Assembly (NCBI GenBank): GCA_964583985.1
Contig: CAZOYD010000016.1
Coordinates: forward strand, 1 to 53,315
Origin: an uncultured archaeon
GTDB taxonomy: Archaea > Asgardarchaeota > Lokiarchaeia > Sigyniarchaeales > SOKP01
Direction of reading: 5' to 3'
DNA: 53,315 bases
The position numbers and the translations under genes were made by a program. This document shows positions 33,456 through 41,852 of the stretch, in pieces. Each line of letters starts with the position of its first letter. The stretch's first letter is position 1. A model generated the notes under the pieces. That model made no database searches. It was not told the DNA's origin and saw only the letters and a program-made list of their open reading frames with translations.

Positions 33456-34469
33456 TCACATTAATAATGTTTTAGCCATGTTAAAGGCATAATTATAGTC
33501 ATAAATTTTTAAACCCTTGGTTACCACAGCTTCCTTAAGAATTTCCCCTTCTACATTAGCTTTGAGGCGTCCTAACGCTAAAGCTCCAATTCCAAATATT
33601 GCCGGATAAATCTCATCATTATCGTGCTTAGGCTTTATTCCTTCAATACCATAGGGGGGAACTAAATTGATATCAACGACAATTTTCTTTTTACCATTTG
33701 AGATTCTTTCCATTAAGTTTCTAGGTAATATTTCAACTCCTGCTGCTGCTAATGACCAGATTACATCGGCGTCTTTGGCTATTTGATATCTATCTTCTGG
33801 ATCTGGAGCAAAAATTCCCTTAATTTGAGTAGCTTCCTTTCCTGCTTCTTCATTCAATCCCGTTACCAAATTCATCAAAATCTCTTCATTTGACTTATCC
33901 CAAGTCTCGACTACGAAAACTTGGCTCTCAAGTTTAGCACCCAATATTGCCGCTATTCTCGCTACAGGTCCCGCTCCAAATATGACTATTTTTTTACCTT
34001 TAATTGATTCAATTCCATGTATTTCTCGAAGATCATGAATAGTTTTAGCTACTACTGCCGACGCAGTTGTATGAGAACCCCTAGGATCAATAATAACAGG
34101 ACATTCGAAAGGAGGAACTAGTGATTTTACTACTTCTTTTGCTATTTTTTCGCCCTCCATTACATTTGATCCCCCTATAAAAAAAGTCGTTGGCGCTTTT
34201 GGTTTGCGGGAAAAAATGGCATCTTGAACAAGTTTAGGCACTTGATCAACTGTCATTTTACTTATAGGCACTACAATATCAAAACCAGCATCATATGCCA
34301 TATTAATGTCGAAGGGCGAAGCGATATCATCCGTATCAAAAAAGAAACATATTTTATCCGATAAATCAGCTTTTTTAATTTTAATTGGTGTTAATTCTAA
34401 TATCGTTTTTTTACCTAAAATACTCCCTATTTTACGTTCTATCTCTTTTTCTTCTGTAATTTTACTCAA
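33456..34469 (-). CDS. NAD(P)-dependent methylene-H4MPT/H4F dehydrogenase (MtdA/MtdB-like)
   Basis: SPFDINMAYDAG, VQDAIFSR, DPRGSHTTASAVV, GAGPVA, AAAGV, DINLVPPYGIEG, GIGALALGRLK. Confidence 0.85.
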   Translation of the reverse strand: MSKITEEKEIERKIGSILGKKTILELTPIKIKKADLSDKICFFFDTDDIASPFDINMAYDAGFDIVVPISKMTVDQVPKLVQDAIFSRKPKAPTTFFIGGSNVMEGEKIAKEVVKSLVPPFECPVIIDPRGSHTTASAVVAKTIHDLREIHGIESIKGKKIVIFGAGPVARIAAILGAKLESQVFVVETWDKSNEEILMNLVTGLNEEAGKEATQIKGIFAPDPEDRYQIAKDADVIWSLAAAGVEILPRNLMERISNGKKKIVVDINLVPPYGIEGIKPKHDNDEIYPAIFGIGALALGRLKANVEGEILKEAVVTKGLKIYDYNYAFNMAKTLLM

Positions 34470-34522
34470 CTCCTTTATTATTTTAAATTTCGTAAATTTT
34501 GTACCATATTTTAAAAAAATAT

Positions 34523-35251
34523 TTATTTTGAAATTTCGATATCGTCTTCCATGACTTCTTCGATTTCTTCAGTTTTAATAGATCTTTTTATTTTAATTTG
34601 TTCAGTTTCAATTCCTAAGTCTGAAGCAAGTTTCTCCAATCCATTAAAGTGCCTTAAATCACAAAGAAAGAGCCCTTTCAGTTTTTTACCATCAATTGTC
34701 TTAGCAAGATTGGTAATATTCATCATCATCCATGCTTCCCTTACCTTATATCTTATTTCATTCTCTTCTGAATCGTAATCATTTTGTAAGTACTCTTTCC
34801 ACATAATTAAACGTTGAAAAAGTTCATCTTTTTCAGGGATCCCCCCATTTTTTTGAATAATTTCTTCAATTTTTGTCTTCAGAGATTTAAGCATGGTCCT
34901 ATGCTCATCCAAGGATGTTGACAAGTAAAATTCGGCATTTTCAGAGATATCGGCATGTCTGAAAGGAATATTTTTCTGTTCAAAGAGACGTTTTAGGGGA
35001 TCTTCATCAGGATTGGAAGGACCGTTCCAGAAATTTGGTTTTTCTTCTAAAGCAATATCTGGTTTATATTTTTCTATCAAGGATTCAATTAATTCTAAAT
35101 ATTCCTTGCTAATCAGATGCAAGTTCCAAATCAAATCTTCCTTCTTCTCTGCAGGCACCTCAAACCACCAATCAATTGGAAATTCAGATTCGATCATTAT
35201 AAGTTTAAGGTGTTTTTCTTTTAAAGGTTTTAATTCTAATACTTCTGGCAT
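34523..35251 (-). CDS. Hypothetical protein, possibly TraB/Tiki/ChaN-like fold
   Basis: KPDIALEE...IPFRHADI...REAWM...LFLCDLRHFNGL pattern; N-terminal EVLELKP. Confidence 0.6.
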   Translation of the reverse strand: MPEVLELKPLKEKHLKLIMIESEFPIDWWFEVPAEKKEDLIWNLHLISKEYLELIESLIEKYKPDIALEEKPNFWNGPSNPDEDPLKRLFEQKNIPFRHADISENAEFYLSTSLDEHRTMLKSLKTKIEEIIQKNGGIPEKDELFQRLIMWKEYLQNDYDSEENEIRYKVREAWMMMNITNLAKTIDGKKLKGLFLCDLRHFNGLEKLASDLGIETEQIKIKRSIKTEEIEEVMEDDIEISK

Positions 35252-35275
35252 TTTTTTTATCCCTCTTTATTATTT

Positions 35276-35896
35276 TTAAAAAATCACATTTTGAATTAGA
35301 TGTTTTTTATTATAAGAAATTACTTTTGCATTTAATTCTCGCAAAAGTTGTACCACTTGTGGACAAATATCTTCACAAATATCTTCTTGTACGAAATGAA
35401 CAAATGAAATGGTATTTCCATCAAATTTCCTAGTCAAATCTAACATTTTTTTCACGATCCATTGTGGTCTTAATTTTAAACTTAAGAAGATCTCTAGATC
35501 TTGAATTTCGTCGCGAAGCATATCTATCCAATTTTTTAAACTCTGTCCTTTATATGACTCCTTATTTTCCATATTCTCAAATTCTTCAAATAATTCATTT
35601 AAAAACTCTTGTTTTGATGAAATTTCTTGATATAAATATCCCATTGCATATTCTGGGATATCTAATTGATAATATGGTATTTCCAATTTGTCTAATGTTT
35701 TAGCAAAAGGAGTTTTACTAAATTCTTCCATATCAACCTGAAAATCAACAGTTACAAAGTTGATATCTTTCTTTTTTAGAAATTCTTCAAGTTTGGATTT
35801 ATCCTCAGTTTGAAAATATTCTGAATCTTCTTTGGAGGACATGTATGAGATTACTTTCTTATTTTTTTTTATTGGTTTTAATTCTAATACTTCCAC
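35276..35896 (-). CDS. Hypothetical protein, diverged paralog of 34523-35251
   Basis: Shared EVLELKP, IP[YF]...DI.E.A..YL, W...L and K[LV]R..W segments; GTG start with GAGGTG upstream. Confidence 0.65.
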   Translation of the reverse strand: MEVLELKPIKKNKKVISYMSSKEDSEYFQTEDKSKLEEFLKKKDINFVTVDFQVDMEEFSKTPFAKTLDKLEIPYYQLDIPEYAMGYLYQEISSKQEFLNELFEEFENMENKESYKGQSLKNWIDMLRDEIQDLEIFLSLKLRPQWIVKKMLDLTRKFDGNTISFVHFVQEDICEDICPQVVQLLRELNAKVISYNKKHLIQNVIF

Positions 35897-35978: not shown

Positions 35979-36022
35979 TTGACAAGAAGAATTTTATTCA
36001 ATTTGATAATTTTACTTGTCAA
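35979..36022. promoter_or_regulatory. Inverted repeat in the divergent promoter region (candidate operator or hairpin)
   Basis: TTGACAAG (35979-35986) / CTTGTCAA (36015-36022), extendable to about 15-bp arms with two mismatches. Confidence 0.45.
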
Positions 36023-36206
36023 TTGTTAAATCTTAATTAATTGTGTAATCATGAGAATTCGTTAATGTGATGTAGAAATCTAATAAAATGATGATCAGTT
36101 TCTTACATAAGTTTTTAAATTTAGATAATAATAAATATCATGATGGAAAAAAAATTTGTCAAAAAATTGAAATCACAATTAAAATTATCTATGGAGCAAA
36201 AAAACA

Positions 36207-38756
36207 ATGGACGTATATTCCATTTTATCCCATCCGTTTAGACGAAAAATTTTATATCTCTTGGAAAGAGAAGGATATATTCAATACTCAGAGATTATGG
36301 ACAAGCTTGGGTTGGATTTAACCGGACAATTGAATTTTCATTTAAAAAAACTTGGATCATTGATTGGTAAAGAGAGAAAATCCTATTATTTAACAGAGGA
36401 TGGTAAAAGAATCCTTAGCATGTTAAATTTAAATGATCGCATCTTAGCAGGAGAAGAAATAGAGCATTTAATCTCGAAGGGTAGTGATATAAATAGAATC
36501 GGTGTTATTGTGTGTAATTGTAATGAAGAAATTTCAAATATTATAAATGTAAATAGTCTTACTCACGATTTATCTCATCTTAAAAATGTAGTTTCAGTAA
36601 GAATTTTTGAGAATTTATGTCAAGAAATAAATTTAGAAAAGGTTGCTAATTGGGTTAAAGAAAATTTCTTAAATAAGATTGTAATTGCTGCTTGTTCTCC
36701 AAAGAGTCATAAGCACATATTTGAACTTATGTTTGAAGATATCGTTGAATATGTAAATATTGAATTTGCTAATATTAGGGAACAATGTTGTTGGGCGCAT
36801 CAACAGCATGATCATGAAACCCAAATGAATCCTCTAAATCTCGCTTTTAAAGCATTTTTACTAATAGAAGCAGCAGTAGTAAGAGTAAACCTTCAAGGAG
36901 CCGTTAAAATTAAGCGGATAGAAGTGGAAAAATCCTGTGCTATATTTGGAGGGGGCATAGCAGGAATGAATTTAGCATTAAATTTAGCTCGTGCTGGAAT
37001 TAAAGTTTATTTAATTGAAAAATCTCCTACTCTTGGAGGTAAAGTTGCTCGTTGGCATCGAATATCTAATATGGGAGACTGTTCAATTTGTTTGATATCT
37101 GAGTTGATAGGAGAAATTGTTAAGAGAGATGATATTGAAGTTCATACTAATGTTGAAATCAATAAAATATCAGGAGAAGTCGGAAATTTCATAATAGAAC
37201 TTATTAAAAAACCAAGATACGTGGATGAAAAACGATGTACTGGATGTTCGCAATGCACTGAAATATGTGGAAATGAAACTCTTAATGAATATGAATTTGG
37301 ATTAACAAAAAGAAAGGTAATTCATTTTCCATTCTCTAATTGTTATCCTTACGTGCCATTAATTACTGATCAGGATATTGAAAAGTGTAGAGAATGTAGG
37401 ATATGTGAAAGAGCATGCTTGAATAAAGTTATAAATTTAGATCAGAAACCAGAAAATTTCCAGATTAAGGTTGGAGCTAAAGTGATGGCAACAGGAGCAG
37501 ATTTATTTTTCAATTTGGATGAATATGGTTATGATCCTTCAAAGAACATTATAACTTCAGCCGAATTTGAACGAATGTTATCTTCAGATGGCTTAACTGG
37601 AGGGAAATTAGTTCGTCTATCAGATAATCAGCCAATCAACTCACTTTCGATAATTCAAGAAATTGGTCCATCTGATTATGTTTGTGAATTTACTGATGAC
37701 GTAGCTCTCAAATATCTTGAAGAAATTAGTATTAGAAATCCAGAATGTGAAGTGAATATTTTTTATGATTTATCTAAACTAAAAGATAATCAAGAACTTT
37801 TACTCCGTTTCATACATCCTAATTTTCTATATGCAAATAATGTCAGTGTAGAAATTGGAAACAGAATTAATTATGTTATAGCCGATTACATTGAGTTTCC
37901 AAGTGATTTAATTGTTTTAAACCAAAAGATTATCCCAAATAAAGATCTAGTTAATCTTCGAAATACATTAGATTTTACGCTTGACGATAATGGTTTTATG
38001 AGCAAGGAAACGCTCGCATCAGGCGTTTATGGAGTAGGATCCATTTTAGGACCTATGAATTATCAATCTACCATTTCTTCAGCAAACACAGTGGCTTTAA
38101 AGATAATATCGCTCCTATCAAATGATTATTTAATTGCGGCTTTTACTGGCATTAATTTAAATGAGGAAAAATGTGGTTTATGTGGTCTATGTATAAAATC
38201 GTGTCCGTTTAATGCGATAGGTATCGATTCTAATAAAGTTAAAATTGATCGATTTAAATGCAAGGGTTGTGGCTCTTGTGTGAGTTCTTGTCCAACAGGA
38301 GCTTTAGAAATGAATATTGATACAACAGAGAAAATTTTGAGAACAATTGACGTATTTTCAAAATTCAAAATTGGCCCCAAAATTCTCATATTTGCATGTG
38401 AATCATGTGGTTATGCTGCTGCGGATATTGCTGGGTTTAAGAAATTAAGCTATCCTCCAAATGTCTTTATAATAAAAGTACCCTGTGCAGGAAGGGTTGA
38501 TACTGAATTTATCCTTTATTCACTCAAATGTGGATTTGATGGTATAATGGTTGTAGGGTGTAGAGAAAATGCCTGCAATTATATTGATGGTATAACACAA
38601 GCAGAGAATAGAATTGAGCTTTTAAAGAAAAATTTCGAGCCAGAAATTCGTAAACGCATAAAAATATTAAAATTGAATTCAATTGAAGGGAAAAAGTTTT
38701 CTGATAGTGTGAACGAGTTCCATAAATTCTTATCGATAGAGGTTGATAATCATTAA
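36207..38756 (+). CDS. Winged helix-turn-helix - HdrA-like flavoprotein - MvhD fusion
   Basis: N-terminal LSHPFRRKIL...LNFHLKKL...YYLTEDG (ArsR-like wHTH); HdrA motifs IAACSP, NIREQCCWAH, GGGIAG, EKSPTLGG, EFERML and ferredoxin inserts; C-terminal MvhD YAAADIAG, PCAGRVD, GFDG..VVGC....C.Y. Confidence 0.88.
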   Translation: MDVYSILSHPFRRKILYLLEREGYIQYSEIMDKLGLDLTGQLNFHLKKLGSLIGKERKSYYLTEDGKRILSMLNLNDRILAGEEIEHLISKGSDINRIGVIVCNCNEEISNIINVNSLTHDLSHLKNVVSVRIFENLCQEINLEKVANWVKENFLNKIVIAACSPKSHKHIFELMFEDIVEYVNIEFANIREQCCWAHQQHDHETQMNPLNLAFKAFLLIEAAVVRVNLQGAVKIKRIEVEKSCAIFGGGIAGMNLALNLARAGIKVYLIEKSPTLGGKVARWHRISNMGDCSICLISELIGEIVKRDDIEVHTNVEINKISGEVGNFIIELIKKPRYVDEKRCTGCSQCTEICGNETLNEYEFGLTKRKVIHFPFSNCYPYVPLITDQDIEKCRECRICERACLNKVINLDQKPENFQIKVGAKVMATGADLFFNLDEYGYDPSKNIITSAEFERMLSSDGLTGGKLVRLSDNQPINSLSIIQEIGPSDYVCEFTDDVALKYLEEISIRNPECEVNIFYDLSKLKDNQELLLRFIHPNFLYANNVSVEIGNRINYVIADYIEFPSDLIVLNQKIIPNKDLVNLRNTLDFTLDDNGFMSKETLASGVYGVGSILGPMNYQSTISSANTVALKIISLLSNDYLIAAFTGINLNEEKCGLCGLCIKSCPFNAIGIDSNKVKIDRFKCKGCGSCVSSCPTGALEMNIDTTEKILRTIDVFSKFKIGPKILIFACESCGYAAADIAGFKKLSYPPNVFIIKVPCAGRVDTEFILYSLKCGFDGIMVVGCRENACNYIDGITQAENRIELLKKNFEPEIRKRIKILKLNSIEGKKFSDSVNEFHKFLSIEVDNH

Positions 38757-39507
38757 ATTTAAAATTTTAATCATTTCGATGACATCGTGCAGTGGTTGTA
38801 TATCTACTTTATTTTCTTTAGATATTTTTCCTCAATTCCTTGAAAAAACAAAAATTGCTTATTTTCCCTATATTACCGATGAGGAAAAGTTAGAGAGTTA
38901 TGATATGGCTTTGATTGAAGGATGTATAATTCAAGAAAGTCAGATTCAACTCATTCAAGAGATTCGGAGGGTTGCAAAGAAAATTTATTTATTAGGTTCT
39001 TGTGCTGCTTTTGGAGGTATGATAAACCTTTCGGAAAAGAAGAGAGGAGATCCTATCTCAAATTATATTGAAGTTGATGGTATAATTCCTGGGTGTCCTC
39101 CTCCTTCGAACTTATTCGGAAATTGTTTGATGGATCTTTTAGAAAATAAAATGATTAAATTATCAAATAGAAATCAATGTTACTCCTGTCCACTTAGAGA
39201 AAGTCTAGACTATGAATTTAAAACTAAGATTACAAAGCTAATCCCAAGTAATAGAGATATTAACTCTGCTCAAAATCCCAAATGTTTCTTATCTCAAGGT
39301 GTATTATGCCTTGGACCAGTGACAAGAGAGGGATGTGAAAACAAGTGCATTATCAAAGGAATGCCATGTGAAAGTTGCTTAGGTCCTCCTTCAAAAAGTT
39401 CGTGCGCTAATATCTATAACTTTCTAAGCCTACTTGACATATCAATTGAGTTAAAAACATATGAAGGAATCTTTTTTAGATATTCAAAACCAATAATTAA
39501 AAGGTGA
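38743..39507 (+). CDS. [NiFe]-hydrogenase small subunit, MvhG-like
   Basis: SCSGC, IEG, GSCAAFGG, PGCPP, CYSCP, CFLSQGVLCLGPVTREGCENKC...PCESCLGP; no Tat signal. Confidence 0.88.
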   Translation: MIIIKFKILIISMTSCSGCISTLFSLDIFPQFLEKTKIAYFPYITDEEKLESYDMALIEGCIIQESQIQLIQEIRRVAKKIYLLGSCAAFGGMINLSEKKRGDPISNYIEVDGIIPGCPPPSNLFGNCLMDLLENKMIKLSNRNQCYSCPLRESLDYEFKTKITKLIPSNRDINSAQNPKCFLSQGVLCLGPVTREGCENKCIIKGMPCESCLGPPSKSSCANIYNFLSLLDISIELKTYEGIFFRYSKPIIKR

Positions 39508-40808
39508 TTAAATTACAAAAAATTGTTGAGCCGTGCAAGAGAATAGAAGGAAATGCAAATATTAAAATACTGCTAAGGGGAGAAAACATTGATCATGTTG
39601 AATTCGTGATCCCTGAAGTTAGAGGGTTTGAAAATATCCTCATGAATAAAAAAACTCAAGATATTCCTAGAATTGTATCGCGAATATGTGGACTATGTCA
39701 TGCTTCTCAAGCAATAGTTAGCAACAAAGCTATCGAAGACATTTATGGGATTAATCCACCAACTCAATCAATAATTTTAAGGAGAATTTTATTAATTGGA
39801 GAATTAATTAAATCTCATGTAATGCATTTCTTTTTTCAATCTTTCCCAGACCTTTTGAAATTAATTAATCTTCAAGAAATATCTAATCCCTATGATTTAA
39901 TGCAATTTGATCCTCATTTGACTTCAAATGTATTTGATTTAATTAAATTAGGTTCAGAAATAGATAAAATCTTTGGTGGTCGATATGTACATTTAATCAG
40001 TTGCATCTCTGGTGGTGTTATATATCATCCTTCACAAATTAACATCAATTTAGTGAGAAAATTACTACAAAAAGGATCTAATAATGCAAAATACTTAATT
40101 GAAACCTTTATAAAACTATTTTCAAGCAAAACTCCGCCTAGTTCATTCGATCTTCCTAAGTTAAATTATTTAGGACTTTCAAACCAAGGTGCTTATGATA
40201 GATATTCCGGAGATATTGTTGTGAAAAATTATAAAAATCAATTAAATTTTCATGAAAAAGATTACCAATCCTATTTTGATAAAGATATTGAAGTGTTTGG
40301 AGTCAGTTTTCATCAAATCGATGATATGGGAGTTATTACAGGTCCAATCGCGAGAGATAATATAAATAAAATTTCAACTAAAGAAAGAATTACCCCATAT
40401 TTTGACAAGATTAATGAAAATTGGAAAAACTCAATTCTTTATCAAAATTTTTTGGAATTAATCGAAGTTGATCATGAAATCCATGAATGTCTCAAATTAT
40501 TAAATGAAAATTCGTTATACGAACGGAGTGATTTACCTGATTTAGGTGAAATTCAAAAATTAGAAGGAATAGGAATGCTTGAGGCCCCACGTGGTTTTTT
40601 ATTGCATCATTATAAAATAAATCAAGATGAGACCGTAATTCAAGCAAAATTATTTATTGCTACTGAAATCAACATTCCTCTCTTAAATTTCATGACATCA
40701 AAATATGCCCATTATTTGCATAAAAATGAGGAAATCGATAAGGTTAGAAAAGAAATAATCCAAATGATAAGAGCGTTTGATCCATGCATATCATGCGCAT
40801 CACACTAA
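39504..40808 (+). CDS. [NiFe]-hydrogenase large subunit, MvhA/group 3-like, atypical
   Basis: RIEG, RGFE, RICGLC, EAPRG, DPCISCASH*; all four Ni-Fe Cys ligands present. Confidence 0.9.
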   Translation: MIKLQKIVEPCKRIEGNANIKILLRGENIDHVEFVIPEVRGFENILMNKKTQDIPRIVSRICGLCHASQAIVSNKAIEDIYGINPPTQSIILRRILLIGELIKSHVMHFFFQSFPDLLKLINLQEISNPYDLMQFDPHLTSNVFDLIKLGSEIDKIFGGRYVHLISCISGGVIYHPSQININLVRKLLQKGSNNAKYLIETFIKLFSSKTPPSSFDLPKLNYLGLSNQGAYDRYSGDIVVKNYKNQLNFHEKDYQSYFDKDIEVFGVSFHQIDDMGVITGPIARDNINKISTKERITPYFDKINENWKNSILYQNFLELIEVDHEIHECLKLLNENSLYERSDLPDLGEIQKLEGIGMLEAPRGFLLHHYKINQDETVIQAKLFIATEINIPLLNFMTSKYAHYLHKNEEIDKVRKEIIQMIRAFDPCISCASH

Positions 40809-40823
40809 TATAGGATTTACATC

Positions 40824-41852
40824 ATGCTAAAGGAGGAGATGAACATCAACGTATTTGAAGATCATAAAAAAATATTCATCAATATGAAAAATAAAATCCA
40901 AGAAGGAGATTTTTCTTTAGGAAATCTCTGTGAGATTTTTATACTTACTGTTGATGAAGCTCTTGGTCGCCTCATTCTTTTAATTTATCCTGATGATTCA
41001 ATTAAGGACGATCTTGAAAAAATCCGAATAATTAATATTCATCCTATATGGCATATCGAGGTTAGTGAGCTTAATGGCTTTGATCCCCTCGTGATTGAAT
41101 GTGGTAAGAGAATTTGCTATGGTTATAAATTTGTATTTCGAAAAGTTATAAGAAAAAAAATTGAAGAAATCATCATCATTCTATCATTACCTTTAGAATT
41201 AGAGATTTTAGGTTTTAATCTTTTAAAAATGATAGTTGATTGGATCATTGGCTCTTATAGTGATAGAATATATAAAATTATTGAATCAGAAATTACTAAA
41301 TTTAAAGCTGTGAAAACCCAAAATATGATAGAAATAATTAGACAGGGAGTTGACTTGAAAGAAACGCTCCTAAATGAGTTAAAAAAAACCTGCACGGAAT
41401 ATTTTTCTTACATTATTAAAATACTAGATGATACAAAAATTAATTCACAGAAAGCTTTATCTCTCTTAATGTTAAAAGGTATAAACCTAACAAATTCCAC
41501 ATTAAAAAGAAATGATACTGATATTGGACATTTTAGAATTAGCCCTTCTGAACAAGAAATTGAAGAATTTTTCTCAATTCATTCTATTAACGTTATTCAG
41601 AACCATAATGAATTTGAAGTCTCAATTCAAAATATATCCAATGATGAATTGAACGATGTAAACGTGAGGATTATTTATATCTTGAATTTTGTTGAACACG
41701 ATATTATTAATGTAGATCTTGATTACTGGTTTTCTGAAGAAAGAATAATCTTCACTGTTCCAATTAAGTCTTTAAATAATGATTTTTTTATCTTTATTTC
41801 AGATAATAATATGAAAAGAACTTTATTCTCGAGAAAAGTCTCTCTTTTATGA
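40824..41852 (+). CDS. Hypothetical protein with possible uDENN/longin-like N-terminal and Ig-like C-terminal domains
   Basis: IFILTVDEALGRLILLIYP resembles the uDENN/NPRL-type longin start; FEVSIQNISNDELNDVNVRI is Ig-like; 15 nt after the hydrogenase stop. Confidence 0.5.
   Translation: MLKEEMNINVFEDHKKIFINMKNKIQEGDFSLGNLCEIFILTVDEALGRLILLIYPDDSIKDDLEKIRIINIHPIWHIEVSELNGFDPLVIECGKRICYGYKFVFRKVIRKKIEEIIIILSLPLELEILGFNLLKMIVDWIIGSYSDRIYKIIESEITKFKAVKTQNMIEIIRQGVDLKETLLNELKKTCTEYFSYIIKILDDTKINSQKALSLLMLKGINLTNSTLKRNDTDIGHFRISPSEQEIEEFFSIHSINVIQNHNEFEVSIQNISNDELNDVNVRIIYILNFVEHDIINVDLDYWFSEERIIFTVPIKSLNNDFFIFISDNNMKRTLFSRKVSLL

Follow-up and report, generated by a model that had tools for sequence, protein, structure and literature searches.

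A Glutamine-Type, Tail-Less [NiFe]-Hydrogenase Lineage of Asgard Archaea, Derived from Group 3c and Encoded Beside a Winged Helix-Turn-Helix HdrA-MvhD Fusion

The DNA analysed here, a stretch of 53,315 nucleotides from an uncultured archaeon of the Lokiarchaeia (contig CAZOYD010000016.1, hereafter the window), carries at 39504-40808 on the plus strand a gene for a [NiFe]-hydrogenase large subunit in which glutamine replaces the canonical histidine of the L1 motif and the polypeptide ends at the L2 motif. The relatives of the gene indicate that both traits run through an entire lineage of Asgard, mainly Lokiarchaeial, enzymes that derives from group 3c. Glutamine at this position and a missing extension are documented as traits of the regulatory hydrogenases of group 2b, HoxC/HupV (PMC5665086, PMC7294309), as a sequence-only reading of the window had stated; taken alone, such sensor-like traits do not show that the large subunit is a sensor. 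With about even confidence, the gene is considered to encode a working hydrogenase whose complex would also regulate transcription. According to the literature, the bacterial H2 sensors are the only [NiFe]-hydrogenases in which the L1 histidine is not conserved (PMC5665086). Both traits are unusual outside group 2b and apparently unreported for Asgard enzymes, and a literature search turned up no description of these motif changes or of the fusion of a winged helix-turn-helix (wHTH) domain to HdrA.

The Large Subunit and Its Altered Motifs

The open reading frame (ORF) starts with GTG, stops with TAA at 40806-40808 and is translated into 434 amino acids, which match PF00374 with 94.4 bits in a profile search (curated cut-off 25.8). 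In HMMER searches the top solved relative is the MvhA chain 5odc_F (E 2e-50), accompanied by the MvhA chain 9sw2_F and followed by 7t2r_D, a subunit of the bifurcating HydABCSL, and the NAD-reducing 5xf9_D. The AlphaFold model (predicted template-modelling score, pTM, 0.85) shares the fold of 5odc_F, 5xf9 and 7t2r with TM-scores of about 0.8 (0.81 for MvhA). On the NCBIfam VhuA model the subunit reaches 138 bits, against a cut-off of 800. Its best NCBIfam and PDB matches belong to group 3 (3c, 3b, 3d and 3a) and then to group 1, with no group 2 family among them, and the MvhA-like group 3 scaffold proposed earlier is borne out by these matches. By its closest relatives and by its linkage to MvhG, MvhD and HdrA the subunit is affiliated with group 3c, while three characteristics of that group, namely the L1 histidine, the C-terminal extension and an HdrBC partner in the operon, are absent.

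Translation places the motifs where the sequence-only reading had seen them. The RIEGN motif (residues 13-17, 39540-39554) contains Glu15, the conserved glutamate of RxEGH, with Asn17 in place of the usual histidine; R13, E15 and G16 are conserved in the lineage with glutamine in L1 (the Gln-type clade) and in canonical 3c. The L1 motif RICGLCHASQ (residues 60-69, 39681-39710) provides the metal ligands Cys62 and Cys65, and Gln69 (39708-39710), four residues beyond the second of these cysteines, replaces the canonical histidine. The L2 motif DPCISCASH (residues 426-434, 40779-40805) is followed immediately by the stop codon, the whole feature covering 40779-40808. The L1 RxCGxC (RICGLC, 60-65) and the L2 DPCxxC (DPCISC, 426-431) are both invariant in the clade. 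In HMMER alignments Gln69 lies opposite the histidine of 5odc_F, 9sw2_F and 7t2r_D (CQVAH, CDVQH and CPVSH), chains that run about 25 residues beyond the L2 histidine at which the window protein ends. The alignments are gap-free, and Gln69 and the C-terminal end are homologous positions and no chance motif matches.

A second change that defines the clade in the conservation alignment is Gln112 (39837-39839), at the position of the canonical leucine of HFYxL. The L1 histidine hydrogen-bonds the sulfur of the bridging cysteine, and the HFYxL leucine lines the end of the gas channel. Compared with MvhA/VhuA of the group 3c MvhAGD-HdrABC complexes (5ODC, 9SW2), the window subunit thus keeps the L1 and L2 cysteine pairs, the RxEG glutamate and the EAPRG arginine, but it is only about 23-30% identical and differs in both glutamines and in the lack of the extension of about 25 residues.

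Glutamine and Tail Loss as Lineage Traits

The homologue set comprised the query and the best 120 of 285 relatives found in a search of 5.8 billion proteins. In this set, glutamine stands four residues after the second L1 cysteine (L1+4) in 119 of the 120 sequences with an L1 motif, the remaining one having histidine, and DPCxxCxxH is the C-terminal end in all 121. The source labels of the relatives read Lokiarchaeota or Promethearchaeota, with a few other Asgard names. One genome of the family to which the window belongs (G223, contigs C115 and C61) encodes two full-length Gln-type large subunits.

Among representatives at 50% identity, glutamine at L1+4 is limited to the Gln-type lineage and its nearest outgroups; beyond these come canonical 3c-like proteins with histidine and tails of 18-35 residues. 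A missing tail is common in group 3, because 22 tail-less representatives with histidine exist in the same set. Eight of the 22 were scanned, of which six best match 3b (sulfhydrogenase) models and two VhuA (3c) models. Tyrosine occupies L1+4 in six representatives, some of them tailed group 3 proteins. The extension is also absent in other hydrogenase groups (PMC7294309).

In a tree rooted on canonical 3c, a form with histidine and a 7-residue tail is basal, followed by a tail-less form with histidine and by glutamine forms with tails of 5-11 residues. The tail-less glutamine proteins constitute the crown clade, and the window gene is nested inside it. RIEGN was considered as a further sensor mark and rejected: it is confined to the subclade of about 80% identity around the window gene, the wider clade has mostly RVEGH (92 of 117), and the same position varies in canonical enzymes.

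The Operon and the Order of Events

The large subunit gene is preceded on the plus strand by that of an 849-residue fusion protein (36207-38756), composed of an ArsR-like wHTH (36207-36491), HdrA (36492-38366) and MvhD (38367-38756), and by that of an MvhG-like small subunit of 254 residues (38743-39507; PF01058, NCBIfam VhuG), whose stop shares 4 nucleotides with the GTG start of the large subunit. The fusion protein matches DUF7347 (wHTH), NCBIfam HdrA2 (557 bits) and FlpD (MvhD), and also 5odc_A and 5odc_D. Its HdrA part is without the CxGSRD...CSxxCC cluster motif of 5odc_A; the window system hence differs from MvhAGD-HdrABC in the fusion of MvhD to an HdrA with an N-terminal wHTH, in having one [4Fe-4S] motif less and in the absence of HdrBC from the operon.

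Nineteen Asgard loci in reference genomes have the same gene order: an Mtd-like gene and two unknown paralogues on one side and, in the divergent direction, genes for wHTH-HdrA-MvhD, MvhG and the large subunit plus an ORF of 342 residues. All 16 loci that cover the region of the fusion gene contain the wHTH. In the window, the 342-residue ORF (40824-41852, plus strand) has no significant Pfam family and is kept 3' of the large subunit in the family; by tblastn its identity is 27-33% in nine loci and 73% in another (L019). The divergent genes (33456-35896) encode an Mtd-like methylene-tetrahydromethanopterin dehydrogenase and two unknown paralogues. All three keep their synteny with the hydrogenase operon across four Asgard families (f1, f4, f21 and that of the window), over which the conservation of the Mtd-like gene is 44-77%.

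Glutamine and tail loss were expected to accompany the wHTH-HdrA fusion specifically, and this expectation failed. Family f21 has the wHTH-HdrA-MvhD/MvhG operon in three of its four loci, those with the region on the contig, together with the same divergent genes, and its large subunit has RICGLCSSAH and a tail of 7-8 residues. In f28 (four loci, L099, L100, L107 and L108), which has this operon too, the large subunit has K[VI]CGFCSAAH and DPCISCSSV plus about eight residues. The operons of f4 and f6 combine glutamine with a tail of 5-11 residues, and those of f1 and f5 have glutamine and no tail, a combination limited to the family of the window and one other. Because wHTH operons also carry tailed subunits of the histidine type, glutamine and tail loss do not go specifically with the wHTH. 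The cysteines of the HdrA [4Fe-4S] motif (window 37600-37720, compared in loci L095-L108) number four in f28, two in f6, one in f21 and none or one in f1, a gradient that parallels the series of histidine to glutamine and tail loss in the large subunit. On this evidence the wHTH-HdrA-MvhD/MvhG operon is older than both traits, which arose stepwise after the fusion. Therefore they are not independent support for a regulator.

In f28 itself, lysine replaces the arginine at the start of L1 and valine the terminal histidine of L2. A loss of metal motifs in these subunits was considered and rejected as an artefact of the search pattern, since the alignment shows all four cysteines. Another contig, DATKTP010000041.1 (9823 bp; L018/L105), is labelled 'Candidatus Deferrimicrobium sp.', a bacterium, and bears the HdrA-MvhD/MvhG/Gln-type operon of Asgard archaea. 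Its coordinates correspond to those of a contig in G124, a genome assigned to the same class as the window, and it is probably a mislabelled or chimeric bin.

Catalytic Core and Rate of Change

Comparison of the Gln-type clade with 33 canonical 3c representatives revealed 47 positions conserved in both sets, among them R13, E15, G16, C62, C65, H105, R363 (of EAPRG), C428, C431 and H434. By sequence, neither the catalytic core nor the Fe-S relay is impaired: the four metal-binding cysteines, the RxEG glutamate, the EAPRG arginine and the terminal histidine are kept, and the cysteine ligands of three Fe-S clusters are kept in MvhG (alignment with 5odc_E). The differences that define the clade are few (H69Q, L112Q, R147I, E260K, K269F and six others). 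Position 69 is glutamine in 100% of the clade and histidine in 33 of 33 canonical 3c proteins; position 112 is glutamine in 95% of the clade and leucine in 91% of the canonical set. The fixation of Gln69 and Gln112 at 95-100% argues for selection over drift.

The subunit changes much faster than the canonical enzyme of the same family. Identity to its counterparts in f1 is 41-51% for most and 80-84% for three close relatives, while VhuA proteins of the family genomes are 82-96% identical. Among the conserved operon loci, HdrA shares 61-68% and the Mtd-like protein 69-77% of its residues with the window counterpart. A strong acceleration of the window subclade was considered and discarded, the effect being modest: its identity to the main Gln-type clade is 50%, against a median of 57% inside that clade, and its root-to-tip length is 2.90 versus 2.62 +/- 0.11. 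The subclade has its own replacements at otherwise conserved positions (C74N, P169S, K179I, F303I and I398T).

Distribution and the Canonical Vhu Enzyme

The genome of the window also encodes a canonical [NiFeSe] Vhu enzyme (contig C43, L081:18-2400), consisting of VhuG, VhuA and VhuU. VhuA (434 residues) has the L1 motif RICGICPIPH, with the canonical histidine, and ends ahead of L2. VhuU is a small ORF in which an in-frame TGA encodes selenocysteine (Sec) in D-C-U-L-S-C-A-A-H, followed by a 21-residue tail, and genes like HdrC and HdrB come next. Both enzymes of the genome are of group 3c type with an MvhG-like small subunit; they differ in the L1 histidine, in the split of the Vhu large subunit with its tailed selenoprotein, in the 3' HdrC/HdrB-like genes and in the high family identity of Vhu. 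The selenoprotein agrees with the Loki selenoproteins reported before (PMC4989117).

Distribution was counted by hand in 88 genomes of the same family, at least 90% complete; these genomes are related and the counts are not independent. Both enzymes occur in 55, Vhu only in 21, the Gln-type enzyme only in nine and neither in three, which gives 64 of 88 with the Gln-type enzyme. Its presence appears to be independent of Vhu, because it occurs in 9 of the 12 genomes without Vhu and in 55 of the 76 with it. In five genomes, 93-99% complete (G200, G163, G265, G272 and G181), the Gln-type ORF is the sole PF00374 match, and in the four of them that were tested PF00346 and PF02906 gave no match. The Gln-type enzyme was not found in a family of the same order with closed genomes of 4.4 and 6.0 Mb. 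The high abundance reported for the group 3c enzyme in cultured Lokiarchaea (PMC11216029) was considered as support for a metabolic role and set aside, since it probably concerns the other hydrogenase and has no bearing on the Gln-type one.

The wHTH and Putative Operator Sites

The profile of the wHTH matches the archaeal ArsR repressor 1y0u (E 2e-4). Across the family the domain is 67-78% identical, above the identity of the hydrogenase subunits, and at the operon loci it is 65-77% identical to that of the window. Its recognition helix, TGQLNFHLKKL, hardly varies in five families. The divergent promoter region between the fusion gene and the Mtd-like group is an intergenic stretch of 310 bp with about 20% G+C in the window. 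It contains a putative operator (35979-36022) made of a half-site TTGACAA (35979-35985) and a palindrome TTGATAA-N6-TTGTCAA (36003-36022), with a further TTGTCAA half-site at 36156-36162. In an alignment of 11 otherwise diverged intergenic regions, TTGACAA, TTGAYAA-N6-TTRTCAA and TTGTCAA are kept in register.

Genome-wide, TTGAYAA-N5-8-TTRTCAA has nine copies versus one for the reversed control. Two of the eight copies other than that of the promoter are intergenic, one of them some 200 bp upstream of a canonical hdrA with Sec codons. Because the other six lie inside ORFs, a genome-wide regulon is not established; nor does the window show an excess of single half-sites (56 versus 47 +/- 7). 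As evidence for a regulon there remain only the promoter conservation in 11 loci and the site upstream of the Sec-hdrA. This hdrA (contig C11, L089:855-2798, minus strand) encodes 647 residues with three TGA codons read as Sec and an intact CVGSRE..CSGVCC; an exact palindrome TTGACAA-N5-TTATCAA lies upstream of it at L089:3001-3019 (15795-15813 on contig C11), in a divergent intergenic region of 548 bp.

Discussion

A dedicated H2 sensor, that is, a low-turnover detector convergent with HoxC/HupV that sets the redox state of wHTH-HdrA-MvhD and thereby switches transcription, is considered rather unlikely. It would account for the group 2b traits (PMC5665086, PMC7294309), for the wHTH fused to the electron-accepting partner at every locus with the region, for the lost HdrA cluster and the absence of an HdrBC partner nearby, for the coexistence of a canonical Vhu with histidine and tail in the same genome and in 55 of the 64 carriers, for the fast evolution relative to VhuA, and for conserved operator-like sites, one of them upstream of the canonical hdrA. 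A pure sensor controlling other hydrogenases would not be expected alone, so the sensor reading is weakened by at least five near-complete genomes in which the Gln-type enzyme has no other hydrogenase beside it, and by the independence of this enzyme from Vhu. Existing wHTH operons with a tailed histidine-type subunit detach the traits from the fusion, and a three-cluster relay plus an HdrA of about 750 residues with ferredoxin domains would be much machinery for a detector. In the regulatory hydrogenase itself, the glutamine 'seems not to be involved in H2 sensing' (PMC5665086). The window system shares with HoxC/HupV the glutamine, the missing extension and a link to transcription output, but the two large subunits are no sequence relatives. 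HoxC/HupV operate through a PAS histidine kinase (HoxJ/HupT) and a response regulator, whereas in the window system the partner flavoprotein itself bears a wHTH, and the window host is an anaerobic archaeon. A profile scan of the nine ORFs flanking the large subunit found no histidine kinase domain. Of the earlier claim that glutamine and tail loss independently support a sensor or regulator, the reality of the traits and their rarity outside group 2b stand; the independence does not, the traits being inherited and acquired after the fusion by an enzyme whose catalytic apparatus seems complete and which in some genomes has no other hydrogenase beside it.

The second explanation supposes an ordinary metabolic hydrogenase with no regulation, in which the wHTH is structural or binds protein and in which glutamine and tail loss are neutral drift. 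The intact catalytic core and relay, the genomes with no other hydrogenase, the frequency of tail-less histidine enzymes in group 3 (the 22 representatives, mostly 3b-like) and the occurrence of tyrosine at L1+4 in some tailed group 3 representatives agree with it. This explanation is nevertheless held to be as unlikely as the dedicated sensor: the wHTH is conserved above the hydrogenase subunits, with a nearly invariant ArsR-type recognition helix, the promoter keeps palindromic half-sites to match, and the two glutamines are fixed across a diverse clade. Finally, a hydrogenase-like scaffold that is decaying or no longer catalytic as selection relaxes, to which the fast sequence evolution, the slightly longer root-to-tip path and the subclade replacements might point, is considered very improbable, as about 120 sequences show no change in any metal ligand or catalytic residue and the ORFs are intact, with overlapping genes, in many genomes.

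A working hydrogenase whose complex also regulates transcription is the explanation favoured here. The fast-evolving subunit, the conserved ArsR-like wHTH and the conserved palindromes fit a regulatory role. According to this proposal, the lineage would have branched from group 3c (Mvh/Vhu-type), its L1 histidine becoming glutamine and the short C-terminal tail being lost afterwards, both changes later than the gain of an ArsR-type wHTH by the HdrA-MvhD partner. The Hyp system may load the large subunit without proteolytic processing; the genome encodes HypD and one HycI-type protease. H2 would be split or made, electrons passing from MvhG to MvhD and on to the flavin and the ferredoxin-type clusters of HdrA. 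Because one [4Fe-4S] site of HdrA is lost and no HdrB is encoded nearby, the complex is probably no classical heterodisulfide-reducing bifurcase. Gln69 and Gln112 would change the environment of the active site, with a possible effect on its redox properties or catalytic bias, and the wHTH probably reads the redox state of the holoenzyme at the conserved TTGAYAA-N6-TTRTCAA sites.

Several observations weigh against this combined role. About a third of the complete family genomes do without the Gln-type enzyme, and the incompleteness of metagenome-assembled genomes could hide a second hydrogenase in single cases. The HdrA cluster motif is lost, and no gene with a CCG domain (HdrB) was found on the contig of the window (C16), hence none in the 53 kb, a partner elsewhere in the genome being possible. 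Most of the other palindromes, six of eight, lie inside ORFs. Evolution faster than that of VhuA is less what one expects of a main metabolic enzyme than of a protein that is scarce or under weaker constraint. As to HdrB-type proteins at large, the genome (G000) has about two dozen CCG ORFs over many contigs (44 domain matches), an unusually large HdrB/HdrD-like set.

A more specific version is put forward tentatively, as a possibility rather than an expectation. The subunit would be the H2 input of a hydrogenase-wired archaeal transcription factor, with Gln69, Gln112 and tail loss tuning an Mvh-type site to low-turnover holding of a signal, convergently with group 2b; reduced HdrA would then alter the binding of the wHTH at its own promoter and at core energy genes, such as the canonical hdrA.

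Asgard archaea are the archaeal group closest to eukaryotes, and syntrophy models of eukaryogenesis give the exchange of H2 a central part. A large Asgard lineage of several hundred sequences has replaced the L1 histidine by glutamine and dropped the maturation tail. Its natural stepwise series, from histidine with a tail through glutamine with a tail to glutamine without one, offers tests of the role of the residue and of the tail. Moreover, the flavoprotein of the operon, with a DNA-binding domain of its own, may couple H2 or redox state directly to transcription.

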